Positions 2,824 to 35,759 of a stretch of 64,000 nucleotides of DNA are shown piece by piece (the stretch's first letter is position 1; every line of letters begins with the position of its first letter). The stretch comes from Acidobacteriota bacterium (lineage in GTDB: Bacteria; Acidobacteriota; UBA6911; RPQK01; JAJDTT01), in NCBI GenBank assembly GCA_965217775.1, contig CBDCJH010000002.1, positions 5,216,001 to 5,280,000 of the forward strand, in the 5' to 3' direction. A model generated the notes under the pieces. The model had not been told where the DNA came from. It worked only from the letters and a program-made list of their open reading frames with translations, and did no database searches. Position numbers and translations under genes: made by a program.

Positions 2824-2895
2824 ACGCAAGCCGTTGAGAGAAGAGCGTCTCGGGATGGGTCCCGATTCAGTTTTTCCTTGTAAATCCATGAACTT

Positions 2896-3210
2896 GTGTT
2901 ATTATCGCTGACCGTGCGGATGAGGGGCATCGGCCGAAACACCGAGACGCGACAAAAGGTAGACTTCAGGTCCGAGAGAAACCTAGCCGTTGCCATCTTG
3001 AGGCAGGCTTGGCACGAAGCCGTCATCGACTTGCGGATCGTCAAGGAAAACTCCCGCAAAGATTATCGCCTGCTCAAGAAGAAGGCCATCGAGTGGATCG
3101 TCAGTGACGAAGACGGCTTCCCCTACTGGTGCAAGCTGGCTGACGCGGACCACAGTGCCATCCGGCAACGCCTGCAGGAGCGACTGAGCCAACAGTACAA
3201 CTGTCAGTAG
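2896..3210 (+). CDS. small hypothetical protein (start may be ATG 2920)
   Basis: 104-aa ORF, helical, ERNLAVAILRQAW...FPYWC motif; plausible codon usage. Confidence 0.65.
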   Translation: MLLSLTVRMRGIGRNTETRQKVDFRSERNLAVAILRQAWHEAVIDLRIVKENSRKDYRLLKKKAIEWIVSDEDGFPYWCKLADADHSAIRQRLQERLSQQYNCQ

Positions 3211-3309
3211 ACTCCCTCAGACCTGGGAACGGATTCGCGGACAGCCTGCCGAATTCCAGAATACGTCTATCCCAGTTCCAAAAAGATTCCATTTCACCTC
3301 CCCCGAGAC

Positions 3310-3422: not shown

Positions 3423-3438
3423 GTGCGTTCGGTCGAGC

Positions 3439-3516
3439 GGGGCCGTAGTTCAGATTGGTTAGAACGCCGGCCTGTCACGCCGGAGGTCGCGAGTTCGAGT
3501 CTCGTCGGTCCCGCCA
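3439..3516 (+). tRNA. tRNA-Asp(GTC)
   Basis: Acceptor stem GGGGCCG/CGGTCCC, anticodon loop CTGTCAC, GTTCGAG T-loop, encoded CCA. Confidence 0.97.
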
Positions 3517-3551
3517 ATCCCGTCACCTTCCCCTTGACACCGGCATCCAGC

Positions 3552-4910
3552 ATGGAGAAGTCTCTCCAGTCTCCCACCCGGGTCCGTTGGCTGGTCTTCG
3601 GCTTGGCCTGCGCCTCGTCGTGGATGCTCTACCTCCACCGATACACCTGGAATTTCATTGGACCTGAGTTGGAGAAGTCCTACGGCCTCTCCAAGGCAGA
3701 GCTGGGCACCCTCTTCTCCTTCTTCATCCCTCCCTACGGGCTCCTGCAGATTCCCAGCGGCATCCTGAGCGATCTGGTCGGTCCACATCTGTTTCTGGGA
3801 CTGATCATGATCCTCTGGTCGTTGGCGCTTCCCCTGCATGCCGCGGCCGGCAGCTTCGCATCGCTGGCCGTCGTCCGCGTTCTCTTCGGCACCTTCCAGG
3901 CGGGCTGCTATCCCAACCTGGCCAAGGTCACCCAGGTCTGGTTTCCCCGCAGCCGGCGCACCGTCATCCAGGGTTGGGTGGCCACCTTCTTCGGCCGGGG
4001 CGGAGGGGCCATGTCCCCCATCCTCTTCGGAACCCTGCTCATCGGCTACTGCGGCTTCTCATGGCAATCCGCATTGGTGTTGTTGGGGGGAGGAGGGGTT
4101 CTTCTGGGTGTCCTCTTCCTGCACCAGTTCCGCAATTCGCCGGAGGTGGACCCGAGGACCAACCAGGCGGAGCGGGATCTGATCCGGGAGGGATCGCGGA
4201 AACCGGACCCCGAGGGTTCCCGGGTGCTGCCCTGGCGCCGGGTCGCGCGCAATCGCAGCATGCGCTTTTTCGTCCTGGGCCAGATCACGAGCGCGGCCGC
4301 CGACACCATCTACGTATCGTTCATGGGAGATTTTTTCCTGAACGCCAAGGGCATCGAGATGATCCAGGCAGGCATACTGGTGAGCCTGCCCCTGTGGGGA
4401 GGAGCCGTGGGGGGCATGGTGGGAGGCTACTGCAACGACTGGGCCATCCAGTGGAGCGGAAGCCGGCGTTGGGGCCGGAGCGTCATCGGTTTCACCGGCA
4501 AGTTCCTGGCCTGTTTGCTGATGCTCTTGACCATCCGTCAGGAGAGCGCGGTGGCGGCCGGGATCTCCCTGTTCGCGGTCAAGTTCTTTACCGACTGGAG
4601 CCAACCGACGGTGTGGGGAACCTGCACCGATCTGGGAGGACGATACTCGGCGACTCTCTTCGGAATCATCAACACGTCGGGCAGCGCGGGGGGCGTCCTC
4701 GCGCCCCCGATCTTCGGTCTGATTCTGGACTACAACACGGCCCGAAACTGGGTGGACGGCGCCTGGGTCCGGACCACCGACTACAACCCCCTCTTTGTGC
4801 TCGTAGCCGCCCTGTATCTGCTCAGCGCGCTGTCCTGGTTCTTCGTCGACTGCACCGAATCCGTGGCAAGCGAGCTCGAACCGGAGCCGAAGGTCACACC
4901 AGCAACGTAG
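3552..4910 (+). CDS. MFS transporter (ACS/sugar-acid type)
   Basis: About 12 TM segments, GILSDLVG motif-A-like, RVLFGTFQAGCYP. The ORF-track start at 3423 overlaps the tRNA, so ATG 3552 is preferred. Confidence 0.9.
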   Translation: MEKSLQSPTRVRWLVFGLACASSWMLYLHRYTWNFIGPELEKSYGLSKAELGTLFSFFIPPYGLLQIPSGILSDLVGPHLFLGLIMILWSLALPLHAAAGSFASLAVVRVLFGTFQAGCYPNLAKVTQVWFPRSRRTVIQGWVATFFGRGGGAMSPILFGTLLIGYCGFSWQSALVLLGGGGVLLGVLFLHQFRNSPEVDPRTNQAERDLIREGSRKPDPEGSRVLPWRRVARNRSMRFFVLGQITSAAADTIYVSFMGDFFLNAKGIEMIQAGILVSLPLWGGAVGGMVGGYCNDWAIQWSGSRRWGRSVIGFTGKFLACLLMLLTIRQESAVAAGISLFAVKFFTDWSQPTVWGTCTDLGGRYSATLFGIINTSGSAGGVLAPPIFGLILDYNTARNWVDGAWVRTTDYNPLFVLVAALYLLSALSWFFVDCTESVASELEPEPKVTPAT

Positions 4911-7085: not shown

Positions 7086-8969
7086 ATGTTCCAAGCCACC
7101 GGATATCAAGTGCGGGCGGGATCGAAACCGCGGGGGCGGTGCTTCCTCGCCCGGTGGTTGGTTCTGGGTCTTCTGTCCTCCAACATCTTCGCGACCGGTC
7201 AGGATCAGGAGCTCAATGCGGCCCTGATCGGGGCCGCCGTGGAGGGCCGCACCGATCAGGTCGCGGCCTTGTTGGACCGGGGCGCCAGCATGTTGGTCCG
7301 GGACCCGGATGGATTGAACCCCCTCATGTACGCCGCCATGGGCGGGAATGAACAGACCGTCCGCCTGCTCCTGGCCCGGGGGTCGGAACTGGAAGCCAGG
7401 ACCCGGGACGGCGCCACCGCCCTGATGATCGGTTCCGGATCCGGACATGTGGCTGCCGTTGGCGCCTTGCTGGAGGCGGGAGCGGACATACGCTCCAACG
7501 ACGCCAGTGGACATACGCCGTTGGTCTGGGGAGTACTGGGAGGGAGCGTGGCGGTGGTCCGGACACTGTTGGCGGCCGGGGCCGGACCCGACGCGCGAGA
7601 CAAGACGGGCTGGACCGTCCTGATGCGGGCATCGTCCCAGGGCGACCTGCCTGTGGTCGAGGCTCTGCTCGAAGGAGGATCCAAGGTCGGGACTCGGAGC
7701 CGCGACAACTGGACGGCTCTCGCCTTGGCCTTGTTCGAGGGCCACGGACGAACGGCTGCTCTCCTGGTCCGCCACGGAGCCGACGTCGATGAGGTGGACG
7801 TCAACGGCATCCCGCTCCTGATGCATGCGGCGTCGGGAGGGAAGACCGAAGCGGCCCGATTCCTGCTGGCCCACGGCGCCGCCACCGGCTTTCGGGACAA
7901 GGAGGGCAACGGACCACTGGCGGCGGCGGCCTACAATGGCTTTGCACCCATCGTCGAGGCTCTGATCCGGGCGGGGGCCGTGGTGGACAGCCGCGACAGT
8001 CAAGGCCGGACACCTCTCACGCAGGCCGCCTCCCAGGGGAAGGCGGATGCGGTCAAGGCGCTTCTGGCGGCGGGCGCGGATCCGCAGATCAAGTCCAATC
8101 GGGGCCAGACGGCTCTGGACCTGGCCGTCTGGTACGACCACACGAAGGTCATCGAAGCGCTGCTCCCGGCCGGGGAACGGGTCGATACCCCCGACGAGGC
8201 GGGTCGAACCCTTCTCGTGCACGCCGCGTTGGAAGGAAACGAGGCGACGGTCAAGGTCCTGCTGGCCCGGGGGACCGATCCGGACCGGCCGGACCGGGAG
8301 GGGAGGACGCCGCTCATCTACGCCGCCCTCCATGGTCACGCCGAAGTGGCCCGGCGGCTCATCGACGGCGGCGCCCGGCTCGACTCTCGCAGCAACGAGG
8401 GTTGGACGGCCCTGGGGCTGGCGCTGAGCCAGGACCGCGGTCCCATCATCGACGCCCTCTTGGCGGCGGGGGTGGATGTGAATTCGGTGGCCCCGCACAG
8501 CCAATCTTTCCTGGGAATGGCGGCCTACCGGGGGCGACTTGAATCGGTTCGGAAACTGTTGCAACGCGGCGCTCGTGTCGGAACGCGAGGCGCGGGGGGC
8601 CAGACGCCTCTCGCCTTCGCGGCGTATCAGGGATTTCCGGAGATCGCCAAGCTGCTGCTGGACCGGGGGGCGGACCCGGATGTCCAAGACGATTCCGGCC
8701 GGACCCCACTGATGCAAGCCGCCTGGAACGGTCATGCTGAAGTGGCGGAACTCCTACTGGACCGGGAGGCCCGGATCGACGCCCAGGACGGTGAGGGCGC
8801 CACTGCCTTGGCCCTTGCCGCGGCCCGAGGTCAGACGGACCTGGTCCGGCTGTTGCTGAGCCGCGGCGCAGACGTGCGTATCCGGAACCACCAGGGACGG
8901 ACTCCCCTCATGTTGGCGCAGGGGGAAGGCCGGAAGGTCACGGCCAGATTGCTCCAGGACCGCGAGTAG
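7086..8969 (+). CDS. secreted ankyrin-repeat protein (~17 repeats)
   Basis: Signal-like N-terminus followed by tandem 33-aa G-T-P/A-L-xx-AA repeats. Confidence 0.93.
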   Translation: MFQATGYQVRAGSKPRGRCFLARWLVLGLLSSNIFATGQDQELNAALIGAAVEGRTDQVAALLDRGASMLVRDPDGLNPLMYAAMGGNEQTVRLLLARGSELEARTRDGATALMIGSGSGHVAAVGALLEAGADIRSNDASGHTPLVWGVLGGSVAVVRTLLAAGAGPDARDKTGWTVLMRASSQGDLPVVEALLEGGSKVGTRSRDNWTALALALFEGHGRTAALLVRHGADVDEVDVNGIPLLMHAASGGKTEAARFLLAHGAATGFRDKEGNGPLAAAAYNGFAPIVEALIRAGAVVDSRDSQGRTPLTQAASQGKADAVKALLAAGADPQIKSNRGQTALDLAVWYDHTKVIEALLPAGERVDTPDEAGRTLLVHAALEGNEATVKVLLARGTDPDRPDREGRTPLIYAALHGHAEVARRLIDGGARLDSRSNEGWTALGLALSQDRGPIIDALLAAGVDVNSVAPHSQSFLGMAAYRGRLESVRKLLQRGARVGTRGAGGQTPLAFAAYQGFPEIAKLLLDRGADPDVQDDSGRTPLMQAAWNGHAEVAELLLDREARIDAQDGEGATALALAAARGQTDLVRLLLSRGADVRIRNHQGRTPLMLAQGEGRKVTARLLQDRE

Positions 8970-9005
8970 AAGCCGTCTGGGCCGCACGCGCGGATCCGGT
9001 TAGTC

Positions 9006-9074
9006 TCACCTGTTCCCGGTCGGCCCCGACCGGAAAGAAGCTCTTTCCATCAGGTACTCGAGAACCAGTGCCAG
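9006..9074 (-). pseudogene. diverged 3'-end fragment of the CxxCH gene that ends at 18945
   Basis: 9020-9074 aligns without gaps to 18950-19004; LALVLEYLMERASFRSGP vs LTLVIEYLMEKATPRLGP. Confidence 0.75.
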
Positions 9075-9101
9075 CCGACAAATAGACTGTTCCCTCGAAG
9101 G

Positions 9102-9257
9102 AAGCGATCTTCCGGGCGGTGCGCTTCGGCCCCGTCCGGAGGCCTGACCGTCCCCCCAGCGCGTTTTGCGCGGCGGCTCCTGGAACAACAACCCCAGGAA
9201 CCTGCGCTCCGCGAACCGCAACAGGAACACCACCGGGAACCGGAACAACAAGAACGG
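9102..9257 (+). repeat. diverged orphan copy of the DGR RT 3' end plus most of the TR
   Basis: 156 bp colinear with 18550-18705 with 7 substitutions, not adenine-restricted; lacks the GTTCCGCGTGGCCCG 3' end. Confidence 0.9.
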
Positions 9258-9524
9258 ACCCACACCTCGTGAAAAGGGAACTGTCCCCTGTTCCGGCTCC
9301 CCTTGACCTTAACTATGACCATACTTTATCTGTATATTCGCCATATATTGTCTGTATGTGTTCTAGTACTCGTTAAGTGTTGAAGATGCTGCTGAATGGG
9401 CTTTGGCATCGACTGAAAAGGTGGATGGGTCCAGGGTTGGCCTCTCGACGTCCCTCGACTTGGCGGCACAATGCGCATCCAGAACGAAGCATGGTTGGAA
9501 TCTGCAACCACATAGGAGGCACAC

Positions 9525-9746
9525 ATGTTACGAAAAGTCACCATGAATCTGACCGAGCGCGATATCGAAATCACCAACAGGCTGACGCAAAAATTGGACT
9601 CGCGAAGCAAAGCATCAACTGTGAGTAGCGCATTGTCGGTGATGGACGATCTGACCAGGTTGGTCGAAGACGGCGGAGAATTGTACAGACGCAAGAAGGA
9701 CGGTTCGATGGAGCGTCTTGTCATTGTGGGGCTGAGAGGTGGCTGA
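9525..9746 (+). CDS. small putative ribbon-helix-helix/CopG-like protein
   Basis: AGGAGG RBS; N-terminal beta-strand-like RKVTMNLT followed by two helices; lower GC than the backbone. Confidence 0.6.
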   Translation: MLRKVTMNLTERDIEITNRLTQKLDSRSKASTVSSALSVMDDLTRLVEDGGELYRRKKDGSMERLVIVGLRGG

Positions 9747-9990
9747 GACCCCCGCTCCCCAGGATTGGGGCGATAGTGGGAATTCTGCAATCGCGATAGG
9801 TTTAACCCCCGCCTATGAATCGGGCCAGTTCTTTTATCGAGTCGTGGCAATATCGCTGGGCACGGCCATTGTTCTATCTGTGCTGGGTTCCGTGCAGTTG
9901 GCATTCTACGAGAAAGAGAATGAGGCCCTTCTCGCCATAGGCTCTGCGGCCGTCGGCGCATTGGCTGGCGTATTGGCGGGAAGACGGTAA
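9739..9990 (+). CDS. small two-TM membrane protein
   Basis: Overlaps the preceding ORF; two hydrophobic helices ending LAIGSAAVGALAGVL. Confidence 0.65.
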   Translation: MAETPAPQDWGDSGNSAIAIGLTPAYESGQFFYRVVAISLGTAIVLSVLGSVQLAFYEKENEALLAIGSAAVGALAGVLAGRR

Positions 9991-10037
9991 GTTTCGCACG
10001 TCATCACGGAAAAATAGACTGTCCCATTCTTGCGCTG

Positions 10038-10082
10038 ACCAGATTGCTCCAGGAGCAGGAGTAGCCGGTCTGCGCCACACGC
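10038..10082 (+). pseudogene. short diverged copy of the ankyrin gene terminus and downstream spacer
   Basis: CCAGATTGCTCCAGGAGCAGGAGTAGCCGGTCTGCGCCACACGC resembles 8944-8990 and 11969-11998; starts about 8 bp after a motif. Confidence 0.65.
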
Positions 10083-10164
10083 CTCCGCCATCCTCCTGAC
10101 ATCGAACGAGGGGCGGAGAACGTGACTGTCCCGGGGCGGAAAACGTGACTGCCCCCTTCTCTCC

Positions 10165-10407
10165 GCCTTTTCGACGATCGATTGGCTCGTAGAGAACGGC
10201 TACGTTCGGGCTCTCCAGCGTGGAGGACTACAGGTCAACGGCTGCATGTTGACCGAGAAGGCGCTGAAGCTACTCAACTCCATTCCCGATGGCGTCCAGC
10301 AACCCGACGAGACTTTTGGAAAGATTCTTGCTCGCCTGATCAAGGAGGGTGGGATAGACGCGGCCAAGGGCCTGGTCACCCAATTGTTTACATCTGGACT
10401 AACCTGA
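10165..10407 (+). pseudogene. 5'-truncated gene fragment (~80 codons)
   Basis: Open frame AFSTIDWLVENGYVR...LTEKALKLLNSIP...KEGGIDAAKGLVTQLFTSGLT* begins directly after the motif; no start codon or RBS at its 5' end; not in the ORF track. Confidence 0.6.
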
Positions 10408-10873
10408 TGCGCTACCGTACTAATGACAACGGCGCGCGAAAAATAGACTGTCCCCTTCTCCCCAATTCACGGGGAAACTGTCCGGTTCTCGTTTCCCAAA
10501 CGTCATAGCTATTTGAGCACCAAAGGCGAGAGACTTGTGAGGGGCCGCTTCGGCTCCGTCTCGCGAAACCAGGGTTAGTAATTGGTGTCTGTGATCGGTT
10601 CCGGCACGAGGGCAATACCTCCGGGTTCGCTGTTGACGGGAAATAGCGAATGGGAAGACGCCACCTTGGGAGTCCGCCGGACGGGCTCTGCGCTGGAGTC
10701 GGCTCTTGGAGAAATCTGGCTCACGAGCGCAGGTGGGACGCCAAATGCCTCTGGACATCGCCGGATCTTAGCTTTGGTCAACACATACGAGTCAGCAAGA
10801 CGGCTCTTGCGGAAAACGTGATTGTCCCCTTCTCCTCGGTTTTCTCCCGGCACCATCAATCCCTGGAAAGCAT

Positions 10874-11427
10874 TCACTGCTGAGTCAGTCCATGGAAGTA
10901 AGTCTTTGCCTTCCCGGATTCCTCCCCTGCACAGGTAGTGATTATCCAGTATTCTCCCACCCTGACCGGCATGAGAAGGGAGGCACCCGTCACATGGACG
11001 CCATGTTTCGGTCCCCCAGTGCGAATGTGCGCAGATGCATTGGCAAGCAATGTCGCCCGTTTACGGGCCTCTTGACTCACCAAATCCTCTCGGTTTGCAG
11101 AGACATACCCGCAAAGGGTTACACGCTCACCCTCCTTACCCAATTCCAACGCCGCAGACACAAGTCCGTCTGTAGATGCCTGCTGAACTGTGTCAAAAGT
11201 CAGCGGACCCGACATTTCGGAAAAGCCGACTCGCTGGTTTCGAATCTCCAGTAATTGAACAACAATCAAAACCGCCAGACTGATCTCCACTACTAGGACC
11301 ACGACCAGCAGGACCCGAGATCGACCATCTATAGCCGAAAGTGCAGAGGCTGCGATCTGCCAAACTGCGTAGACGGTAAGTCCCCCACATACACTATCGT
11401 TATCAGATCAGCAATGTTGTCCAGCAT
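10874..11427 (-). pseudogene. frameshifted membrane-anchored hypothetical protein
   Basis: GAGGAGG RBS and ATG 11427 give MLDNIADLITIV, which continues in another frame as VCGGLTVYAVWQ...; apparent 2-nt GT insertion near 11393. Confidence 0.55.
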
Positions 11428-11609
11428 TTATCCTCCTCTTTTCCGAATGCACGCATATATCGGGGACTCCAGGAACAAGCGACGTAGGTAAAACTAGTTC
11501 TACCATGGACGGAAGGGGACAGTCTCGCTCCTGTGGCCAATTTTGAGCGCGGAACGTGAGTGCGGAACGGACAACGTGACTGTCCCTTTCCCCCTTGATC
11601 AGGCGGTCT

Positions 11610-11994
11610 GCGAGGTGCGGCGGGACAGACGGCTCTCGCCTGCGCGGCGTACCAGGGATTTCCGGAGATCGCCAAGTTGCTGCTGTACCGGGGGGCGGAC
11701 CGGGATGTTCAGGACGACGATGGTCGGACCCCGCTGATGCAAGCCGCCTGGAACGGTCATGCTGAGGTGGCGGAACTCCTACTGGATCGGAAGTCCCGGA
11801 TCGATGTCCAGGATGGTGAGGGCGCCACTGCCTTGGCCCTCGCCGCGTCCCGAGGCCAAGCGGATCTGGTCCGGCTGCTGTTGAGCCGCGGCGCGGACGC
11901 CGGTATCCGGAACCACCAGGGACGGACTCCCCTCATGCTGGCGCAGGCCGAGGGCCGAAAGGTCACGGCCAGATTGCTCCAAGAGCAGGAATAG
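11610..11994 (+). pseudogene. diverged duplicate of the last 385 bp of the ankyrin gene
   Basis: Gap-free colinear with 8585-8969, largely conservative changes, no proper start; begins just after the motif at 11578. Confidence 0.9.
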
Positions 11995-11999
11995 CCGGC

Positions 12000-12242
12000 C
12001 CGTAACATCCGCAAGCCGCCGCCTGCCATCCCCCTGCGCGAGTCCTGCCGCCACCAGGAACGGGTCACAAAACCCGCCCTCGCCAACCTTTCCAAGTGGC
12101 CCCTCATTGGGTCGAGGGCATACGCGTCCTGCTCAAGAAGGGCACGGCGGTGGCCAGCGTCGCAGCCTTCCTCGATGTCGTGCGTTCTCCCCCTCACGGC
12201 CACATCGACGCCCCCATCGGCTCCCTGCGCAAGATCGCCCTC
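12000..12242 (+). mobile_element. IS1634-family transposase N-terminal remnant
   Basis: PPAIPLRES...LANLSKWP then (frameshift) VEGIRVLLK...VVRSPPHGHI...LRKIAL matches the IS1634 N-terminal signature. Confidence 0.7.
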
Positions 12243-12545
12243 CATGCACCGGCGATTTCGTTCACCATGACTCCCATGGGCCGCTCCGGCAGCCGTCGGC
12301 CCATGTTGACTATCGTCTGTCCTCCGTATACTTTGACTCGAATTGAGATCCGGCCCCCCTATACCAGGGAGAAATCGCGAAATGCTGCGGATTTTCGAAA
12401 CATATTGAGGCTCTGAGAGTCTCCGGAATCGACGATCTCTTCTGGCGCAAGGGTGGCGGTATAGGTTCCTGGGCGTTCTTTCACCGCTTCCGCGGACTGA
12501 GGGTCGGGCAGGAACTCTCGGAAGAGCGAAACAAGGAGCCTCCCG

Positions 12546-14015
12546 ATGCGATGTTTTCAGGCGATGTCGATAGGTATCGTCCTGACCGCGTCCACCTTGG
12601 GATGGGAATCGAGCGTCTTCGCCCAAGTTCGCGGGCGCGTGAAGAGTAGCCTGCTATTGCTCATCGACGCCTCCGGGAGCATGGGAGATCCCATCGGAAG
12701 GGGGAATTCACAGGTCAAGATCGAAGCTGCCAAGCAGGCCGCCATCGCCGCCTTGGGCCGGGCGGCAAACAGCGGTTCGGTGGAAGTCGCGGTTCTGGCC
12801 TTCAGCGGAGATTGCAAAAATCCTGTCCCTCGCTACCAGGACTTCACCCGGGATGTCAGTCGGCTCACGCAGTTCATCAATAGTCTGCAGCCGGGCGGCG
12901 GCACCCCCATGGCCGAAGCCTTGCTATTCGCCAACCGCTATATGCACGGAAACAGTGATCCCGGTGCTGCCACGCGAATGATCATGTTGCTTGCGGATGG
13001 CCAGAACGACTGCGGCGATGTCGCTCAGGCGATGGGCAGCTTGAAGTCCGGCGGGATCATCTTCCGGCATGAAACCGTGGGGTTCGGCATTACGCCAAGC
13101 TCTCCGGCGACGCACGATTTGCGCCAGATTGCCACTCAAACCGGCGGCGTCTACCACCATGCCGCCGACGCCAACCAACTGGCGGACGTGTTCATGGAGT
13201 TCGTGGACACGTTTTCCGTTATTGACATGCTGGGAATGTTCGGACGTCCCGGCGCGCGTGGGACGGCGGTAAACCCGCAAGGGCAACCGAAGAAGAAACA
13301 AGCGCCAGACATCGCTCCCCCAACTTCCAAGCCAGGGTCTGGTGAATTGTCAAACATGCTCGGTCTCTTCAAACCAAAACAGTCGGCGGCGGAGGTGGAC
13401 AATTCACTTCCTGCCGCTTCCGGATCGATGCTGTGCTACCGGCAATTCACCAACCCCTCGGGGCTGGACGGCGTGCGCGACCATCATCAGGTCACCGAAT
13501 TCACCTGCGCCACTTCATGCCAGTCTTTTGGGTCGTCCCCGTACCTTACCGGCGAGACCAGAGTCGACCGCCCGCCCGGGACGTCGTGCGCGGAGCAGTG
13601 CATCTACGCAGCCGGTTCCGATTTCGATGCGAAATTCGTCCATGGCCGGTCCATCATCGAGAACCACTGCGTGAACGCATTCGATCCGCTACAGTCGCCC
13701 GACGTGGTGACCCATTTCTACTGCGACCTCTCGGACAATAAGCATCGCGTCACTTGGCAGAGCAGGACGCGGCCATGGGCCGGCTTTCGCATCTATCTCA
13801 ATCACTTTCCCGACCGAAACGACGAAGCGCAATTCATGGGCGAAACAGTGGGGAACACGTTTGATTTCGAGTACGGGACGAACTTTCACGAAAATCCAGT
13901 GGTGGACGGGATGAATCTCTGGAATCCGTTTCCGCAAGTCGGGGTGAGTGCCTGCAACAAGTATGGAATCTGCACGCCGGTTTTCTACGGAAATCGGGGC
14001 GGCTGCGGGCCGTAG
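12546..14015 (+). CDS. secreted VWA-domain protein with Cys-rich C-terminus
   Basis: Signal peptide, MIDAS motif DASGS, GGTPM, LADG; many Cys in the C-terminal half. Confidence 0.85.
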   Translation: MRCFQAMSIGIVLTASTLGWESSVFAQVRGRVKSSLLLLIDASGSMGDPIGRGNSQVKIEAAKQAAIAALGRAANSGSVEVAVLAFSGDCKNPVPRYQDFTRDVSRLTQFINSLQPGGGTPMAEALLFANRYMHGNSDPGAATRMIMLLADGQNDCGDVAQAMGSLKSGGIIFRHETVGFGITPSSPATHDLRQIATQTGGVYHHAADANQLADVFMEFVDTFSVIDMLGMFGRPGARGTAVNPQGQPKKKQAPDIAPPTSKPGSGELSNMLGLFKPKQSAAEVDNSLPAASGSMLCYRQFTNPSGLDGVRDHHQVTEFTCATSCQSFGSSPYLTGETRVDRPPGTSCAEQCIYAAGSDFDAKFVHGRSIIENHCVNAFDPLQSPDVVTHFYCDLSDNKHRVTWQSRTRPWAGFRIYLNHFPDRNDEAQFMGETVGNTFDFEYGTNFHENPVVDGMNLWNPFPQVGVSACNKYGICTPVFYGNRGGCGP

Positions 14016-14440
14016 ACGGGCGCGGACCTTCCCATTCCCGATCGATTGGACAGGTGGGGGCTCGCGTTACGAGGTTTCGCGCCTGGTATCGAGTCACGAT
14101 GGGGTCACCGACATCATGCCCTTCAAATCATGGCGGGCCAGCATGGAGATTCGTGAGGCTCTCTCTCGGGAGCACTGGCCGACGACTATCCGACGGTTCA
14201 AACGGTAAAGCGTCGACTGCTGGACGAGTGCGGTGATGACTGTCACGTCGTCATGGAATTCAGTGTCGTATGCGCGGCCTTTGCGGCGGATGAGGTGCTG
14301 GACCGAGGACTACGAAGACCGCGCGCGGGCTCAGAAAAGGGCCATGGATGAATGCTGAGAGAGGCGGGACATGGTCCATTGTACGAGTCTGGTGTTGCAT
14401 GCGACGTTGAGCGATGAAATCAGATGATGGGAGAAGCACC

Positions 14441-17071
14441 ATGAGGAAGACAGTTGGTCGTTTACTGGCCGTGTCGTTATTGGGGGGCATTGTGTTTGGT
14501 TCGGCGCAACTTCCGCCGGAGATCCTCGCGGACCAATATCTGCTGCAAGCCGACCAGCAGATAGCCAAGAACGACCATGAGGAGGCGCTCCAGTCACTCC
14601 AGAAGATCCTGGCTCTGCAAAAGGAGCACGGACTGACGTTGCCGGAGGCGTTCCACTTCAAGTATGCGCAAGTGGCGTTTGCAGCCGGATCGTTTCCAAC
14701 GGCGTTGGAGTCGGTGAACCAGTATTTGGTGATGGCCGGCAGAGACGGCGAGTTCTACCAGAAGGCGTTGGAGTTGTTGCTTGCAATCAAGGCGGTGGCG
14801 GACCGGACCCCGTGCGCGGGCCAACCCAAGGGGACCGAGTGCTGGCTGGAGTTGGCGAGTCAGCCGGGATGCTCTGTCTGGATTCCACAATTCGAGCCCT
14901 ACAAGGCAGCAACGTGGACCGGGGAGTGTTCCGGGGGCGTGGCTCAAGGGCGGGGAACCCTCAAATGGGTCTGGGAAGCTGGTGACAAGCTCTACAAGGA
15001 AAAGAAGAGCGTCGAGAAGGCTGAGACCCCGAATGCCCCACAGCTCCGATCAGGAACGCCGTCCACGTTCCGGGACGGACCCACGTGCGCGGGCCAGCCC
15101 AATGGCACAGCCTGCTGGATGGAGTTGGCCGACCAACCAGGATGCTACGTCTGGGATAGTGACCTCAATGTGGACGCAACCGTGACTTGGACGGGCGAGT
15201 GCATCGAGGGCATTGGTCAGGGTACCGGCACGTTTAAATCGGTGTGGGACGGTGGCAAGAAGACATCGGAAAATACAGGGCGAATGCAAGCCGGCAAGAA
15301 GCACGGGCAGTGGGTCTTGCGCCGTGAGAACGGGGATGTCTTCCAAGGCCCATATGTGGAGGGCAAGTTTCATGGACCTTGGATCCTGCGCTTGGCAGAC
15401 GGGACAGTCCAGGAAGGCTCGTTTATGGAGGGGAAGCATTACGGGCAGTGGGTCTTGCGCTACAAGGACGGGGATGTCGAGCAAGGATCGGCTGTGGAAG
15501 GCAAGCGCCACGGGCAGTGGTTATGGCGCGACAAGGACGGGAGCGTAGAGGAAAGGTTCTATGTGGAGGGCAAGAAAATCGGGAGCAATGCGAACGCTGA
15601 AGTCATGGAAGGGCTTATGGTAAACGGCCAGATGCACGGGGACTGGGTCTGGCGTGAAGCGGACGGGGATGTCGAGGAAGGGCCCTATGTCGAGGGTCAA
15701 CGCCACGGGCAGTGGGTCTTGCGGTTCGCGAGCGGGAACGTCTGGGAAGGGCCCTATGTAAGCGGCAAGAAGCAGGGAAGTTGGGTCGAGGGGAACTGGA
15801 AAGGGGCCTATGCCGAGGACAGGAAGCACGGCGACTGGGTCAAACTTCACAAGAACGGAAACATCAGCGAAGAGGTGCCCTTTGTTAAGGGCAAGCGGCA
15901 GGGGCGCTGGGTCAGTCGTAACGAGGACGGGAGTGTCTTTGCAGAAGGGACATATGTAGCGGATCAGAAGCACGGTCGATGGTTAGACAGATACGAGGAG
16001 GCGGCCGGAAGCTACTGGGATAAGGGGTCAGGATCTTACGTGGAGGGGAAGCGGCACGGGCGCTGGAGCTGGCAGGATGGTGCCGGTGACTCAGCGATTG
16101 GACCCTACGTCGAGGGGAAGGAGCACGGCTTTTGGACATTTTACGACAAGGATTCGAAGATCGGGGAGCCCCCTGCAGAGGGCCCCTATGAAGAGGGCCA
16201 GCGCCACGGGCGGTGGGTCTTGCGCGACAAGAACGGGACCATCTCGGAAGGCCCGTATGTCAAGGGAAAGCGGCACGGAACCTGGCTCCTTTACTCGAAG
16301 GGGAAAAAAGACAATTCATTGACGAGTAAGCTCATATATGACAGTGGCAGCATTGCCCCTGTCCCGCTCAAACCGGAAATGGCGGTCATTCCAGCGGGAG
16401 AATACCGGAGAGGCTGTAGGTTGGACTGTGGCGAATACTCGGCCGCAGAGAAACCGGTGCGAAAAGTGAGGGTGGAGGCGTTCGAGTTGTCCAGGTACGA
16501 GGTGACGTTCGAGGAGTACGATCGTTACACGGCGGCGACGGGACGGGAACGCGCGGACGATGAGGGCTGGGGCCGTGGGAGGCAACCGGTAATCAACGTG
16601 TCGTGGGAGGATGCGGTGGCGTATGCGAGTTGGCTGTCGGAGCAGACGGGGCAACGCTATCGGTTGCCGAGCGAGGCGGAGTGGGAGTACGCTGCGCGGT
16701 CGGGAACGAAAAAGAAGAAGTACAGTTGGGGCAACGAGATTGGGCGCAACCGGGCTAACTGCAGGGGTTGTGGCAGTCAGTGGGGCAAGCAGACGGCCCC
16801 GGTGGGATCGTTCCCACCTAACCGTTGGGGCCTGCATGACATGCACGGGAACGTGTGGGAGTGGGTGCAGGACTGCTGGAACGGCTCCTACCAAGGGGCG
16901 CCGGCGGACGGCACGGCCTGGGCAAGCGGGGACTGTTCCCAGCGCGTTTTGCGCGGCGGCTCCTGGTACGTCAGCCCCAGGCTTCTCCGCTCCGCGAACC
17001 GCATCAGGATCACCACCACGAACCGGTACTACGACGACGGGTTCCGCGTGGCCCGGACTATTACCCCTTGA
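14441..17071 (+). CDS. DGR target protein: secreted; TPR-like + Cys repeats + MORN-like repeats + FGE-sulfatase/CLec domain
   Basis: Signal peptide; repeated G.Y..GKRHG.W; YEVTFEEY, RLPSEAEWEYAAR, GLHDMHGNVWEW, RGGSW...GFRVAR; the VR encodes the C-terminus. Alternative ATG at 14414. Confidence 0.93.
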   Translation: MRKTVGRLLAVSLLGGIVFGSAQLPPEILADQYLLQADQQIAKNDHEEALQSLQKILALQKEHGLTLPEAFHFKYAQVAFAAGSFPTALESVNQYLVMAGRDGEFYQKALELLLAIKAVADRTPCAGQPKGTECWLELASQPGCSVWIPQFEPYKAATWTGECSGGVAQGRGTLKWVWEAGDKLYKEKKSVEKAETPNAPQLRSGTPSTFRDGPTCAGQPNGTACWMELADQPGCYVWDSDLNVDATVTWTGECIEGIGQGTGTFKSVWDGGKKTSENTGRMQAGKKHGQWVLRRENGDVFQGPYVEGKFHGPWILRLADGTVQEGSFMEGKHYGQWVLRYKDGDVEQGSAVEGKRHGQWLWRDKDGSVEERFYVEGKKIGSNANAEVMEGLMVNGQMHGDWVWREADGDVEEGPYVEGQRHGQWVLRFASGNVWEGPYVSGKKQGSWVEGNWKGAYAEDRKHGDWVKLHKNGNISEEVPFVKGKRQGRWVSRNEDGSVFAEGTYVADQKHGRWLDRYEEAAGSYWDKGSGSYVEGKRHGRWSWQDGAGDSAIGPYVEGKEHGFWTFYDKDSKIGEPPAEGPYEEGQRHGRWVLRDKNGTISEGPYVKGKRHGTWLLYSKGKKDNSLTSKLIYDSGSIAPVPLKPEMAVIPAGEYRRGCRLDCGEYSAAEKPVRKVRVEAFELSRYEVTFEEYDRYTAATGRERADDEGWGRGRQPVINVSWEDAVAYASWLSEQTGQRYRLPSEAEWEYAARSGTKKKKYSWGNEIGRNRANCRGCGSQWGKQTAPVGSFPPNRWGLHDMHGNVWEWVQDCWNGSYQGAPADGTAWASGDCSQRVLRGGSWYVSPRLLRSANRIRITTTNRYYDDGFRVARTITP
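16938..17055 (+). repeat. DGR variable repeat (VR)
   Basis: 118-bp match to 18603-18720 with 12 mismatches, all opposite TR adenines. Confidence 0.97.
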
Positions 17072-17100
17072 GTCTTTAAATCTTTACTTCCTACGGGGGT

Positions 17101-17120
17101 CCAGGGGGCTGGCCCCCTGG
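17101..17120. promoter_or_regulatory. GC-rich hairpin downstream of VR (DGR target-recognition-type stem-loop)
   Basis: CCAGGGGG-CTGG-CCCCCTGG: 8-bp stem, 4-nt loop, 45 bp after the VR. Confidence 0.75.
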
Positions 17121-17146
17121 TATTTTTCTGAGGCTCAGCGGCAAAT

Positions 17147-17542
17147 TTGAGCAATGCAACCCATCGAGGGCGTGTGGGCAGAGGTGACCGTTCGCGCGAG
17201 ACGGGGCCGGCGCTGGAGTCGCACTTCCGGTTCGTCGCGTGGTTGATCCCGACGATGGAGCGGTTTCCGCGCCGGAAGAAGTTTCTGCTGGGGGACCGGA
17301 TCCAGACCTCGGCGCTGGACGTTCTGGAGCGGCTGATCGAGGCGACCTACACCCGGCGCCGGGGTCCCGCCCTGACCTCCGCCAACCTGGGCCTGGAGAA
17401 ACTGCGGTTCCTGTGCCGCCTGGCGCACAAACTCCGTTACCTGGACCCTCGCCGCTACGAGCACGCGGCGCGACAACTGGACGAGACCGGTCGTCTGGTG
17501 GGCGGCTGGCGCAAGACGCATCATGGCCGAGAAAGCGCGTGA
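17147..17542 (+). CDS. avd: DGR accessory variability determinant Avd
   Basis: WLIPTMERFPR..KFLLGDRI, ANLGLEKLRFL.RLA, E.GRLVGGW; basic four-helix-bundle type protein directly upstream of RT. Confidence 0.9.
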   Translation: MSNATHRGRVGRGDRSRETGPALESHFRFVAWLIPTMERFPRRKKFLLGDRIQTSALDVLERLIEATYTRRRGPALTSANLGLEKLRFLCRLAHKLRYLDPRRYEHAARQLDETGRLVGGWRKTHHGRESA

Positions 17543-18794
17543 TCTCTTCGACCGGATCGCCTCGTTTCCCGCCCTGCTGGAGGCGGCCCGGATCGCCGCC
17601 CGGGGCAAGCGGACCAAGCCCGGCGTGGCGTCGTTCCTCGCCAATCTGGAACCTCAGGTCCTGCGCCTGGAGCGGGAACTGAGGAGCGGGTGCTACCGTC
17701 CCGGACGCTACACCGTCATCGAGAGCCGGGACCCCAAACGCCGCATGGTCTCGGCGGCGCCCTTTTGGGACCGGGTCGTCCACCACGCCTTCTGCCGCGT
17801 CGTGGAACCCATCTTCGAACGCGGCTTCATCCACGACAGCTACGCCAACCGGAAGGGCAAGGGAACCCACAGGGCCATCGCGCGCTACGAACGATTTCGC
17901 GACCGGCACCGCTGGGTGCTGCGTTGTGACATCTTCCGCTACTTCCCGGCCATCGACCACGAGACCCTCAAGGCGGACCTGCGGCGGCGGATCGCCTGCC
18001 GGCGCACCCTGGCGTTGGCGGAACGCCTCATCGATGGGTCCTACCTGCAGGAATCGGTGAACCTCTACTATCCCGGCGACAATCTCTTCACCCCCTTCGA
18101 ACGCCGGCGAGGTTTGCCCATCGGCAACCTGGCGAGCCAGTTCTTCGCCAAACTCTATCTGAACGGCCTCGACCACTTCTGCAAGGAAGTGCTGCGGGCG
18201 AAGGGATATCTCAGGTACGTGGACGACTTCGCGCTGTTTCACGACGACCGCGGGCGGCTCGAGGACTGGCGGAATCGAATCACGACGTATCTCAAGGGCC
18301 GGCGCCTGCGGCTGCACCCACGCAAGACGGTGGTGCTGGAAACTGCTCAACCGACTCCGTTCCTGGGCCTGGTCCTTTTTCCGGGCGGTTATCGCCGATT
18401 GCCGGAAGCGAACGTGCGCCGGTTCCGCAATCGCCTGCGGGGGCTGCGCGACCGCTGGCACGCGGGCGCTGTGGACCTGGAACAGATGACTCGGCACGTG
18501 CGCGCCTGGATCGCGCATGCCGAGCATGCGAATACCTGGCGCCTGCGCCAAGCGATCTTCCGGGCGGTGCGCTTCGGCGCCGTCCGGGGGCCTGACCGTC
18601 CCCCCAGCGCGTTTTGCGCGGCGGCTCCTGGAACAACAACCCCAGGAATCTCCGCTCCGCGAACCGCAACAGGAACACCACCACGAACCGGAACAACAAC
18701 AACGGGTTCCGCGTGGCCCGCACGCTCGCAAGCCGGAGCCGGGGTCCCTACGGGGACGCCGGGAGCGCCTCCGAGCGTCCAGGGACGGTCATGA
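17523..18794 (+). CDS. DGR reverse transcriptase
   Basis: PKRRMVSAAPFWDRVVHHA, SYANRKGKGTH, DIFRYFPAIDH, GLPIGNLASQ (DGR-type SQ), RYVDDF, FLG. Confidence 0.96.
   Translation: MAEKARDLFDRIASFPALLEAARIAARGKRTKPGVASFLANLEPQVLRLERELRSGCYRPGRYTVIESRDPKRRMVSAAPFWDRVVHHAFCRVVEPIFERGFIHDSYANRKGKGTHRAIARYERFRDRHRWVLRCDIFRYFPAIDHETLKADLRRRIACRRTLALAERLIDGSYLQESVNLYYPGDNLFTPFERRRGLPIGNLASQFFAKLYLNGLDHFCKEVLRAKGYLRYVDDFALFHDDRGRLEDWRNRITTYLKGRRLRLHPRKTVVLETAQPTPFLGLVLFPGGYRRLPEANVRRFRNRLRGLRDRWHAGAVDLEQMTRHVRAWIAHAEHANTWRLRQAIFRAVRFGAVRGPDRPPSAFCAAAPGTTTPGISAPRTATGTPPRTGTTTTGSAWPARSQAGAGVPTGTPGAPPSVQGRS
18603..18720 (+). ncRNA. DGR template repeat (TR), embedded in the RT 3' coding region
   Basis: AAC-rich (12 AAY codons in the VR frame); matches the VR except at adenines. 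Confidence 0.96.
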
Positions 18795-18896
18795 TGAAGA
18801 CCGGGACGGCGCCCCTCTTGCCCCGCGGTCGCGGGGGAGGGGCGCTTCCCAATGCGGTTTGTGGGCGGTGGGTCGCCGGATAATCAGATTATCCGG
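18744..18896 (+). other. structured region 3' of TR (three hairpins)
   Basis: GTCCC-TACG-GGGAC (UNCG loop, 18744-18757); GCGCCCCTC...GAGGGGCGC (18809-18845); CCGGATAATC-A-GATTATCCGG (18876-18896). Confidence 0.55.
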
Positions 18897-18944
18897 TTTC
18901 GAAATCGTTCCACGGTGGGGGCTCCTGGTATCGACTCACCCGGG

Positions 18945-20453: not shown

Positions 20454-20614
20454 GTTGCGGAGTTCCGGAGCGCAGTCTAGCATAGCAGCCCTCAACGGCC
20501 CGTAGCGGGAGCCCCAGCGGAAAGGTTTCAGGAATGCAAGACACGAGACCGGAAAACTCATCTCCTGGCTCGGGAAGCCGTGGCTTTCAGGCGCCCCATC
20601 CCGGTTCCAAGGAG

Positions 20615-27477: not shown

Positions 27478-27580
27478 GGATCGTGTGCGGGATCACGGCC
27501 GCACGGATTCTCCCACCGAGTGGGAGTTCAAAGCTGACCGCCGGCGGGTCCGAAACCGGTAGAGTGGACCCCTGGGGCCA

Positions 27581-27744
27581 TAGCAGCCCGTGGCAAAAGT
27601 CATCACGGCATTCGACCGTCCCTGCATCCCGGCGGACGGCGTTGCGATTCGGGCACATACTCCCGGTATGCACCCGAATCGCGCCTTGTCCGGCGGGCGC
27701 AGGAACGGTCTCGGTGCTCGCGGGACTTTCACCACGGACTGATA
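27581..27744 (-). mobile_element. 164-bp MITE-like repeat, copy 2 (inverted, inside the bat operon)
   Basis: Reverse-complement match to 63307-63470; TA at both ends. Confidence 0.85.
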
Positions 27745-34296: not shown

Positions 34297-34298
34297 CC

Positions 34299-35758: not shown

Positions 35759-35759
35759 A

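Follow-up and report, generated by a model that had tools for sequence, protein, structure and literature searches.

The window analysed here is a 64,000-nt stretch of an Acidobacteriota genome. Just downstream of a conserved ankyrin gene (7086-8969) it carries an array, at 9075-11592, in which copies of a motif of about 25 nt with the core GACTGTCCCCTTCTC are interspersed with pieces of other genes and elements (Table 1). Together with a VWA gene and a DGR, the array lies in an insertion at 9069-18929 that is bracketed by a direct repeat of about 63 bp. Further along the window are a RAYT-like transposase gene, which forms part of a REPtron-like unit, and two more motif copies of the palindromic type.

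Table 1. Features of the array, its insertion and other motif-associated loci in the window (bits, PWM scores of motif copies)
Feature	Position	Strand	Remarks
Imperfect direct repeat, ~63 bp, left copy	9006-9068	.	81% to 18936-18998; 3' end of minus-strand gene 18945-20561
Degenerate motif	9075-9099	+	14.9 bits; first of array; left edge of ~9.9-kb insertion
DGR template-repeat (TR) copy	9102-9257	+	53 nt upstream plus TR, minus last ~25 nt of TR
Motif, palindromic-type variant	9269-9293	+	23.0 bits
Low-GC module (GC 0.523)	9305-10006	+	ORFs 9525-9746 (73 aa) and 9739-9990 (83 aa)
Motif	10007-10031	+	31.1 bits; homology to congener G005 extends ~10-12 nt beyond
Orphan ankyrin gene terminus	10038-10068	+	last ~30 nt including stop; 6 nt past motif
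Tandem motif pair	10114-10161	+	weak 10114-10138 (11.7 bits), strong 10137-10161 (29.6 bits); collinearity with contig C1 ends here
5'-truncated gene	10164-10407	+	final 80 codons of 147-aa gene; joint 3 nt past motif
Motif and degenerate copy	10436-10490	+	35.1 bits; degenerate copy 10466-10490 (weak match 10476-10490)
IS 3'-end remnant	10491-10809	+	full IS copies in congener G006 encode DDE_Tnp_1_4 transposase
Motif	10810-10834	+	31.1 bits
Orphan gene, frameshifted near codon 15	10874-11427	-	intact form 184 aa, 97% identical protein; segment GC 0.523
Inverted motif pair	11510-11592	.	11510-11534 minus (17.7 bits), 11568-11592 plus (24.7 bits)
Orphan ankyrin 3' end, 385 bp	11610-11994	+	88.8% to 8585-8959 of intact gene 7086-8969; 18 nt past motif
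DGR	14414-18730	+	target gene 14414-17071 (FGE-sulfatase domain, VR); source of the array's TR copy
DGR parts	bAvd 17147-17542, RT 17523-18794, TR ~18603-18730	+	
REPtron-like unit	34298-35758	-	RAYT-like gene 34580-35521 (minus, 313 aa)
Motifs of REPtron-like unit	34298-34322, 34410-34434, 35708-35732, 35734-35758		first two minus, last two plus
Orphan ankyrin 3' copy, 88 bp	35760-35847	+	91% to 34013-34100 of gene 33289-34101; 2 nt past motif
Palindromic-type motif	57551-57575	-	35.2 bits; surrounding stretch without C1 counterpart
Palindromic-type motif	63084-63108	-	35.2 bits; abuts truncated copy of the array's IS 3' end (63106-63305)

A first-pass annotation of the window had described a motif-punctuated array of fragments, with about ten motif copies in 2.5 kb, and motif counts and segment identities both confirm the observation. 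We find 9-10 copies at 9075-11592, far above chance, of which only five are strong (29.6-35.1 bits). A 24-nt pattern with up to 3 mismatches is expected 0.01 times in the window and occurs 9 times, with 5 of these matches at 10008-11592, and the 15-mer GACTGTCCCCTTCTC, again with up to 3 mismatches, occurs 20 times against 3.99 expected (largest shuffle 9), with 10 of these 20 at 9271-11592. At 11.7 bits or above, a PWM places nine sites in the array, starting at 9075, 9269, 10007, 10114, 10137, 10436, 10810, 11510 (minus strand) and 11568. The earlier wording "hairpin-like" holds up poorly. Compared with shuffled sequences, array-type variants fold no better (z 0.1 to 1.3) and the palindromic variant modestly better (z -1.3 to -1.7), and no covarying helix was found across 282 motif copies from the genome.

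The segments between the motifs are largely what they had been taken for. The DGR piece is 95.5% identical to 18550-18705, keeps its TR-type adenines and begins 3 nt past the motif. DGRs make single-stranded cDNA, and a cDNA origin of this copy was considered; as a simple reading it was rejected, because 53 nt upstream of the TR are included and the TR 3' end is missing. The low-GC two-gene unit is present as described, and its two small ORFs have no family match. Copy matches identify both ankyrin ends, the one near 10038 and the one from 11610, and the downstream flank of the latter is the flank found in congeners G007 and G005. The 5'-truncated gene has its whole 147-aa parent on contig C1, intact at 66760-66317. 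As for the frameshifted gene, comparison with the 184-aa protein upholds that assignment; this one near-identical protein is all that is known of the intact form, the gene has no homologue among 14 genomes of the family, and short-read contigs show the same frameshift. The one segment previously left unidentified is the IS remnant. A known RNA was also considered there and rejected, as the segment has no Rfam match and proved to be of IS origin; the Rfam search found no family at 8900-12100 (E up to 1) and two tRNAs only in the whole window. Public short-read (Logan) contigs span 8900-9131, 10355-10499 and 10650-11754 with 0 differences. "Joints" within Logan contigs were set aside, as they rest on 23-27 nt that are motif only and may come from other loci or strains. 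Fragments in the array begin -3 to 18 nt from the 3' side of a motif, in keeping with the 0-20 bp originally claimed.

The array lies in a hypervariable insertion hot spot. The ~9.9-kb insertion that contains it is absent in 4 of 7 congeners, where sequence corresponding to window position ~18930 directly follows the ankyrin gene, and G007 and G005 have different motif-bounded joints at this same locus. The low-GC module recurs in G005, where it is 91% identical and again motif-bounded, in a different context. The two copies in the assembly differ in array content, as do the congeners, and the differences begin at motifs; all three breaks of collinearity between the window and C1 (at the array, at the RAYT block and within 54-63 kb) fall at motifs. 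In a second array, 3 congeners retain one motif-to-motif module of 2.2 kb intact beside differing neighbours, and in G006 the modules are shuffled. In every comparison made, covering two assembly copies, seven congeners and one distant genome, the repeat lies at structural-variant joints.

The motif belongs to a repeat family that is dispersed over the genome. Its core 10-mer has 148 exact occurrences against ~24 expected, and a PWM threshold of at least 16 bits gives 384 matches in the genome versus 16 in the reversed genome, or 282 motif sites after overlap merging. Clusters of at least 3 hold 67% of the 282 sites, compared with 3.9% under random placement. There are about 35 such clusters, the window array being one, and 126 of 155 adjacent motif pairs within clusters have the same orientation, with spacers of 9 to ~2900 nt of unrelated DNA. 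The conserved unit stops at ~25 nt and its flanks are unrelated, both in an 11-copy array and in the 282-copy profile. No GTAG or GT[AG]G (or CGTC) tetranucleotide appears in the position-wise consensus around the core. The C-rich strand holds 168 of 262 motif sites, and arrays split 19 to 9, a replication-strand bias that is modest and confounded by clustering, since the sites are not independent.

The motif had been reported to flank a RAYT at 34.6 kb. This is correct for the gene in the window, and inverted motifs flank 11 of 11 full-length RAYT-like gene copies in the genome, which share 86-100% amino acid identity (they were found by local tblastn; a PF01797 profile search of the genome missed them). 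The 313-aa protein scores 30.9 bits with PF01797 (Y1_Tnp; cut-off 23), and with NCBIfam REP_Tyr_transpos it aligns to positions 3-145 of 146 at 48 bits, against a cut-off of 80. Across 11 aligned homologues, residues H65, H67 and Y164 do not vary. With a pLDDT of 41, an AlphaFold model made with 11 close homologues as input does not suffice to establish the fold, and a phmmer search of the PDB gave no Y1 enzyme and one spurious phosphodiesterase match only. Motif abundance follows the RAYT-like gene over 41 genomes, among which related genomes are not independent: nine others with a RAYT of at least 70% identity (8 congeners, with 3-11 RAYT matches each, and G023) have 29-91 motif copies each, and the 13 genomes without a RAYT match have 0-3. 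The motif therefore tracks this RAYT clade, as first suggested, and is not common in genomes that lack it. G023 is from a different family, a point in favour of gene and repeat having been transferred together.

The motif might conceivably serve another role, as a site for a regulator, a nucleoid protein or some other recombinase, with the joints as stitching points of accessory islands. The palindromic variant, GAGAAGGTGAC T GTCCCCTTCTC, does resemble a dimer-binding site on duplex DNA, and the motif is conserved in sequence, not in structure. However, inverted motifs at all 11 RAYT-like genes, and the co-occurrence of motif and gene across genomes, one of them outside the family, make such a role highly improbable. 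Among 24 PF00589 matches in the genome, a single truncated fragment lies inside an array, which also speaks against another recombinase; a link to an integron-type or other tyrosine recombinase was rejected on this count.

Repeat edges coincide with joints between unrelated DNA segments. Homology to a paralogue starts 0-24 nt past a motif 5-8 times more commonly than elsewhere, and 55 unique starts fall within 20 nt after a motif, compared with 2-18 in bins 100-300 nt off on either side. Homology breakpoints are thus enriched at motif edges genome-wide rather than random relative to the motif. A fixed distance between motif and gene truncation point, the other half of the original suggestion, does not emerge, as joints lie anywhere from -3 to 24 nt. 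Of 56 motif sites with a joint, 52 have a paralogue that lacks the motif and differs in its upstream context; at 3 the motif is present in some paralogues and not others, at 1 it is present in all, and simple insertions number 0. Upstream sequence is not shared in 49 joint sequence pairs. Paralogues exist for 66 of 131 inter-motif segments, versus 19-30 of 131 in random controls. Source breakpoints are not enriched in genes (31/49 inside genes versus 178/200 random positions), and no conserved di- or tetranucleotide was seen by eye at the 49 source breakpoints, where HSP ends may be off by a few nt, too much for a firm negative. One recent event left an 83-nt copy directly past a motif; it matches its source at 100% identity. 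The RAYT block at 34101-35759 is missing from its C1 paralogue, and in the single comparison with this empty site the right end coincides exactly with a motif, a left end is not defined, and there is an imperfect direct repeat of 88 bp.

The joints could have formed passively. REP-like repeats may simply cluster, with the enzyme uninvolved in the joints, and identical 25-nt direct repeats or bound proteins may stall replication; slippage, template switching and illegitimate or short-homology recombination would then yield tandem duplications, deletions and insertions templated by nearby DNA. Sources are indeed mostly local (median distance to the paralogue 11 kb; 29 of 54 within 15 kb), joint distances vary without a site signature, and the motif's own 3' half is found partially duplicated. 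Another recent event, a 107-bp perfect tandem duplication that includes the motif and has its joint 9 nt past it, is of the expected kind, and arrays in G023, with two alternating modules plus truncated versions of these, fit unequal exchange between repeats. Yet exchange between repeats leaves the motif in both partners, which is the sole pattern at 1 of the 56 sites and is seen with part of the paralogues at a further 3. The joints show microhomology of only 0-2 nt, the foreign low-GC modules between motifs would be left unexplained, and a structural fork barrier is not evident because the array-type motif folds no better than shuffled sequences. We therefore regard passive clustering as possible, if on the unlikely side.

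Same-orientation arrays with ~1-kb spacing carry whole accessory genes, including GFO/IDH/MocA oxidoreductases, HTH regulators, DUF2806 and a ThsB-like TIR protein, with a GC of 0.56 versus 0.62 for the genome. The first-pass annotation had proposed a dedicated capture system, in which the RAYT-like enzyme and the motif would form a single-strand integron analogue: modules would be inserted and excised beside the motif as recombination site, giving selectable accessory arrays and a record of local and foreign DNA. Such heterogeneous genes in these arrays agree with this, as do the two-gene module bounded by motifs in two contexts and two genomes, the 2.2-kb unit with its changing neighbours, and modules common to distant arrays, such as one of 877 bp at 0.41 and 4.42 Mb. 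Many inserts, however, look useless, being gene ends of 30-400 nt, a TR piece or IS remnants, and module boundaries are neither precise nor repeated. Array genes occur on either strand, the arrays showed no common promoter or platform and are spread over ~35 loci, many beside the enzyme's own gene copies, and nothing points to selection for them. A dedicated capture system is thus very doubtful, and nothing indicates an integron- or CRISPR-like record, given the irregular spacing and the one tyrosine-recombinase match in 24 that lies in an array. What had been called local and foreign DNA consists mostly of nearby copies, with some foreign low-GC modules. It is also possible, though unlikely, that the RAYT-like enzyme and the 25-nt motif constitute an HUH-based single-strand cassette system, in which cuts beside the motif would free motif-ended modules as circles that re-enter beside other motifs; kb-scale accessory arrays could in this way be assembled, shuffled and exchanged without a tyrosine-recombinase integron, and the fragments would be misfires.

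With moderate confidence, we favour the combined reading that a multi-copy RAYT-like Y1 (HUH) transposase of this Acidobacteriota genus has the motif as its REP-like repeat, and that the array is a by-product of repeat-anchored RAYT rearrangement, a scar record rather than a dedicated capture or memory device. The repeat is found at the joints of truncated local copies and foreign modules alike, suggesting that the repeat family drives local genome reshuffling, and from these sequence patterns we infer that the RAYT catalyses the joints. The transposase would bind the repeat on single-stranded DNA and cut beside it; after a second cut at a poorly specified site, the ends would be rejoined, so that the intervening DNA is deleted, duplicated or circularised. 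Circles or displaced strands could re-enter beside another repeat or via homologous crossover in a shared gene end, and template switching, likewise anchored at the repeat, could take the place of cleavage and joining in forming truncated local duplicates and bringing modules together. Repeated rounds may leave repeats in the same orientation, 5'-truncated copies of nearby genes and occasional foreign modules. The earlier idea of iterative RAYT strand transfer thus keeps the tie between motif and RAYT and the breakpoint enrichment, and loses the programmed record.

Several observations count against an enzymatic mechanism. Sources are mostly ~10 kb off, beyond the single strand exposed by one fork. 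The distance from motif to joint is variable, the hairpin is poor, GTAG is missing and the strand bias is modest. The structure model is poor, the PDB search yielded no Y1 match, and breakpoints are not enriched in genes.

If the enzyme does make the joints, REP/RAYT systems would be active shapers of accessory-gene islands, not merely passive intergenic repeats, and a source of gene truncation and duplication. The perfect recent duplications, the empty site and the motif-bounded modules in different contexts are natural substrates with which the question could be put to the test both in vitro and by long-read sequencing of populations.

Cleavage and strand transfer of this general type have been described. 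According to Ton-Hoang et al. 2012 (PMC3333891), E. coli TnpA_REP requires the REP, cuts single-stranded DNA across a span of more than 400 nt at sites whose only defining feature is C^T, and carries out strand transfer in vitro, and this low-specificity cleavage and transfer was proposed to diversify and amplify REP clusters. The initial statement that no description of such an architecture was known should be softened to that extent; our literature search yielded neither this motif nor arrays of this kind. As in REP/RAYT systems, a short, clustered repeat with hundreds of copies follows its own enzyme across genomes, a Y1 HUH gene lies between inverted repeats, and the enzyme class, as PMC3333891 reports, needs the repeat, cuts loosely defined nearby sites and transfers strands. 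Unlike those systems, the motif has no GTAG/GT[AG]G foot, which known RAYTs need, and its hairpin potential appears weak or absent. Clusters are direct (126/155), whereas BIMEs have REPs of alternating orientation with short conserved linkers between them and REPINs are inverted pairs; here the inter-repeat DNA, 0.03-2.9 kb in length, is made up of whole genes and fragments of genes. With 11 copies at 86-100% identity, the enzyme also departs from the usual one or so per repeat family; in its 313 aa, the HUH and Y motifs stand ~100 residues apart. The arrays therefore differ from described systems in being direct, weakly palindromic and GTAG-less, with a multicopy RAYT and kb-scale cargo.

The enzyme's length and motifs (NHFH and YVELNAV) recall TnpA_Y1 subclasses 2.1 and 2.3, which Quentin et al. 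2018 (PMC6006769) describe as long (238 and 325 aa) and as having an NH[YF]H-type HUH motif and a YIELNP- or YVDLNP-type Y motif, subclass 2.3 having a large HUH-to-Y distance and occurring mainly in Chromatiales and Alteromonadales. No REP-like sequences were found for either subclass in that study, whereas the repeat association here is clear and the host is an acidobacterium. The repeats thus appear to accompany a RAYT of a subclass reported without REPs, the subclass being assigned by motif comparison only and not from a tree.

Elements of the IS200/IS605 family (IS608, ISDra2) share the single-strand Y1 HUH chemistry, cuts distant from the recognised element, circular single-strand intermediates and the absence of a short target duplication. 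Their ends are defined and have subterminal hairpins, they cleave at a fixed distance, and they target a specific tetranucleotide; here fixed ends or a fixed target were not found, and gene copies differ by up to 14%. Integrons and CALINs likewise have site-like repeats in the same orientation between heterogeneous, often low-GC accessory genes, and their recombination too has been suggested to act on single strands. Their attC sites, however, measure 55-140 nt and have paired inverted boxes, compared with the 25-nt repeat here, where no integron integrase is nearby, many "cassettes" are fragments and genes lie on both strands. Unlike a CRISPR array, the window array has gaps of ~0-700 nt and repeats that vary (11.7-35.1 bits), one of them inverted. 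Helitrons and IS91-type elements are Y2 rolling-circle elements in which an HUH enzyme and the end it recognises take up host-gene fragments, carried inside a defined element. Here, the fragments lie between free-standing repeats, and only 4 of the 56 joints have a motif at the source.

Copies of a motif of about 25 nt (core GACTGTCCCCTTCTC) separate unrelated segments of DNA at 9075-11592, as the first-pass annotation had proposed. The array holds 9-10 copies. The 24-nt pattern of that annotation, with up to three mismatches, matches the window 9 times where 0.01 matches are expected (5 of them at 10008-11592), and a 15-mer, also with up to three mismatches, matches 20 times against an expectation of 3.99 (10 at 9271-11592). 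A PWM built from motif copies of the same genome places nine sites of at least 11.7 bits in the array, five of them strong (29.6-35.1 bits) and one inverted. The motif had also been described as hairpin-like, for which the evidence was not convincing: array-type variants fold no better than shuffled sequences, 282 copies show no covarying helix, and a palindromic variant folds only slightly better than shuffles. The 3' half of the motif is often partly duplicated directly after it (2736-2790 of locus L073 in the congener G007; 5168917-5168948 and 4310918-4310948 on contig C2 of the source assembly); either slippage or successive rounds of cutting and rejoining may have left these duplications.

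The assembly, an Acidobacteriota MAG, totals 6.43 Mb (62.3% GC) and consists of a 144-kb contig, C1, and a second contig, C2. Genome-wide, the 10-mer core has 148 exact matches against about 24 expected, the 15-mer with up to two mismatches has 225 against 6-50 for 20 permuted motifs, and the PWM yields 384 hits against 16 in the reversed genome. Merging overlaps leaves 282 sites, 67% of which lie in 35 clusters of at least three, compared with 3.9% under random placement. Neighbouring motifs inside clusters share an orientation in 126 of 155 pairs, and GC is below the genome mean in most clusters.

The repeat belongs to a RAYT-like gene at 34580-35521 (minus strand). Its 313-aa product matches Pfam Y1_Tnp above the cut-off and the NCBIfam model for REP-associated tyrosine transposases over nearly the full length, with a score below that model's cut-off; the HUH motif (NHFH) and Y motif (YVELNAV) are invariant in 11 homologues. 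The genome carries 11 full-length copies of the gene (86-100% identity), all flanked by motifs in inverted orientation, the REPtron arrangement. The motif also follows the gene across 41 genomes of the order, which are related and not independent: eight congeners and G023, from a different family, combine a gene copy of at least 70% identity with 29-91 motif copies, the 13 genomes without a match hold 0-3, and the sister genus pairs a homologue of 44-55% identity with a motif that differs by one base. (The 41 include an unpublished genome, G016, on which no claim rests.) The annotated tie between motif and RAYT was borne out.

The system works like a REP/RAYT system in its core features: the repeat is short and present in many copies, it is arranged with the gene as in a REPtron, it co-occurs with the gene across genomes, and the protein has a Y1 domain with catalytic motifs. 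It departs from such systems in a motif without GTAG and in its eleven gene copies, and the palindromy of the motif is weak; its clusters are direct repeats, whereas the repeats of a BIME alternate. In motifs, length and copy number the protein resembles subclasses 2.1 and 2.3 of Quentin et al. (2018; PMC6006769), who report REP-like sequences as not found for these subclasses. Literature searches found no description of the motif, nor of gene-fragment arrays punctuated by REPs. Identity as an integron or CALIN was rejected, and so was identity as a CRISPR array.

Motif edges are meeting places of unrelated segments. When 35 clusters with their flanks were compared against the whole genome, 55 unique starts of paralogous homology fell in the first 20 nt past the 3' end of a motif, against 2-18 per bin at 100-300 nt on either side, confirming the suspected enrichment of breakpoints; homology ends are also enriched immediately 5' of the motif. 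At 52 of 56 motif sites with a downstream joint, the paralogue lacks a motif at the matching place and has different upstream sequence; none of the 56 looks like uninterrupted DNA into which a motif was simply inserted. A fixed distance from motif to truncation point, which the annotation had suggested testing for, was not found, the spacer spanning -3 to 24 nt across 49 joint pairs. These 49 pairs have no upstream sequence common to both partners and, by eye, no obvious site signature. In at least 16 of the 49 joints the copied DNA is the 3' portion of a long open frame, with the joint 70-1080 nt before the end of that frame, and by a crude ORF proxy source breakpoints lie inside long frames less often (31/49) than random positions do (178/200).

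Joints have formed repeatedly and in more than one lineage, in some cases recently. Two are fresh: an 83-nt copy that matches its source at 100% identity directly follows a motif with the next motif 12 nt on, and a perfect 107-bp tandem duplication has its joint 9 nt past a motif. In Salmonella, REPs play a role where tandem duplications are joined. After removal of segments bearing the RAYT gene, 66 of 131 inter-motif segments have a paralogue (at least 100 bp, at least 80% identity), compared with 19-30 of 131 in three random control sets, and the best paralogue is usually near (median distance 11 kb).

How could such joints arise? First, they could be repeat-anchored rearrangements, probably made by an enzyme, a reading we hold with about even confidence. 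Second, the repeats could provoke slippage and template switching without an enzyme. This is the main rival, and the local origin of fragments and the tandem duplications speak for it; however, motif-motif exchange is rare, being the sole pattern, with a motif in all partners, at 1 of the 56 sites and mixed at 3 more, and microhomology is nearly absent, and we consider it rather unlikely.

On the enzymatic reading, the RAYT-like protein would make the joints, in a manner modelled on E. coli TnpA_REP. According to PMC3333891, that enzyme binds REP on ssDNA, cuts on either side at sites specified by C^T only, over more than 400 nt, and also transfers strands, and its authors proposed that such cutting and transfer diversify and amplify REP clusters. 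By analogy, a cut beside the motif would be joined to a second, loosely specified cut. A second cut downstream would give a deletion, and use of a displaced or newly made strand a duplication. Alternatively, a circle ending at the motif could form and re-enter by crossover in a shared gene end. Three nested structures in the window, each a long imperfect direct repeat of a gene 3' end with a motif beside the orphan copy, would fit such re-entry.

The first-pass annotation had read the array as a RAYT-driven record of captured DNA. That reading is partly supported: the motif-gene tie and the motif-edge joints agree with it. A purpose-built capture system is unsupported and appears improbable, since many inserts are useless fragments, boundaries are imprecise, genes lie on both strands, and neither a platform nor an integrase is present. 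That the motif serves some other role seems to us very improbable indeed.

Features of the array, the nested repeats of the window, breaks in collinearity with C1, and two dense G023 arrays
Feature	Position	Strand	Remarks
DGR template-repeat (TR) region copy	9102-9257		95.5%
Two-ORF module	9305-10006		low GC
Ankyrin gene terminus	10038-10068		30 nt
147-aa gene, last 80 codons	10164-10407		whole gene on C1
IS 3'-end remnant	10491-10809		IS with DDE_Tnp_1_4 transposase
Orphan gene	10874-11427	-	frameshift near codon 15, judged against a 97%-identical 184-aa protein
Ankyrin gene, last 385 bp	11610-11994
Nested repeat, 88 bp			around RAYT block
Nested repeat, 63 bp			around 9.9-kb insertion
Nested repeat, 385 bp, ankyrin			around array
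Collinearity break	10132-16721		array and DNA to its right
Collinearity break	34101-35759		1.66-kb block with RAYT-like gene
Collinearity break	54-63 kb
G023 array (L080)	G023:C1:1459199-1460750		12 motif copies; the two arrays span 1.5-2.2 kb
G023 array (L081)	G023:C1:1487644-1489824		18 motif copies

The IS remnant had been left unidentified in the annotation. The DDE_Tnp_1_4 domain of the IS transposase is typical of the IS1380 family. Many near-identical copies of this IS occur in the congener G006 (at least 15 loci, L085-L096), and the copies at the array and control loci examined in the source assembly are truncated or diverged. In two arrays 3 Mb apart on C2 (motifs at 2122552-2122576 and 5169742-5169766), the joint falls at one and the same position of the DDE_Tnp_1_4 gene, although the two motifs are different variants; identity of the fragments to full IS copies is 81-85%. 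Either motif and fragment travelled together as one unit or the breakpoint is a preferred one.

Among 5.8 billion clustered proteins, just one is a near-identical relative of the orphan gene, and a search of 14 genomes from the family found no homologue. Short-read contigs from public runs, which may include the genome's own source sample, bridge 8900-9131, 10355-10499 and 10650-11754 with 0 differences; the array joints and the frameshift are thus not long-read artefacts. One public contig from another study has an extra C after 11381, which would restore the frame.

The ankyrin gene at the array locus is conserved in all seven congeners, and in four of them (G001, G002, G003, G006) sequence matching window position ~18930 follows it directly. 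Thus, 9069-18929 is an insertion in this genome; it comprises the array, a VWA gene and a whole DGR, and is bracketed by the ~63-bp imperfect repeat, which corresponds to the 3' end of a minus-strand gene next to it. The DGR (14414-18730) is complete, with an FGE-sulfatase-domain target gene with VR, then bAvd, RT and TR in order, and TR and VR differ at TR adenines. The DGR is also present on C1, at about 60.8-62.9 kb, whereas four of the seven congeners lack it at this locus. G007 has a second, independent motif-TR joint, in which the motif meets the middle of the TR. The two-gene module lies between two motifs in a different context in G005, and the sequence in common extends about 10-12 nt beyond the motif on the right.

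A second array, at 2.11 Mb on C2, has 13 motifs in one direction throughout and holds whole accessory genes and, between two motifs, a 76-nt gene end. One of its motif-to-motif modules (2.2 kb) stays together as a block in three congeners, five genomes share the motif edge at which homology begins, and module order differs in G006. G023 (3.4 Mb) has dense same-orientation arrays of two modules, about 177 and 108 nt, in irregular order and with truncated versions, each starting right after a motif. All of these arrays surround a single RAYT copy of that genome, at 1.42-1.49 Mb.

Window positions 1-54012 have a counterpart on C1 at 92-97% identity, and collinearity is broken at three places, with motifs at each. 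Over 1-64000, about 60 kb has such a counterpart, at C1 24.6-77.4 kb. Array content varies between copies: those in the window and C1 have common modules in different arrangement, with differences beginning -3 to 3 nt from motif ends, and congener loci carry other joints. The C1 array additionally has a piece of ankyrin gene, the truncated gene's 5' half and a 360-bp stretch carrying two further motifs. The 88-bp imperfect direct repeat bracketing the RAYT block is the 3' end of the ankyrin gene at 33289-34101, and its right copy starts 2 nt past a motif. C1 may represent either a paralogue on a plasmid or another strain that was co-assembled; the assembly's contamination estimate is 7.47%. 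Public runs also contain a more abundant variant of the two-gene module.

A ~165-bp repeat unrelated to the motif occurs at 2660-2823, 27578-27745, 39283-39445 and 63306-63474, and on C1 at 6.2, 25.2, 51.8, 86.0 and 119.0 kb; its many copies (89-97% identity) mark some ends of window-C1 homology blocks. A tRNA gene (3439-3513) overlaps the start of a long ORF (3423-4910, MFS transporter) and adjoins a short stretch where, compared with C1, flanking DNA is duplicated in inverted orientation: 2849-3250 and 3310 onward both match C1 from 74143.
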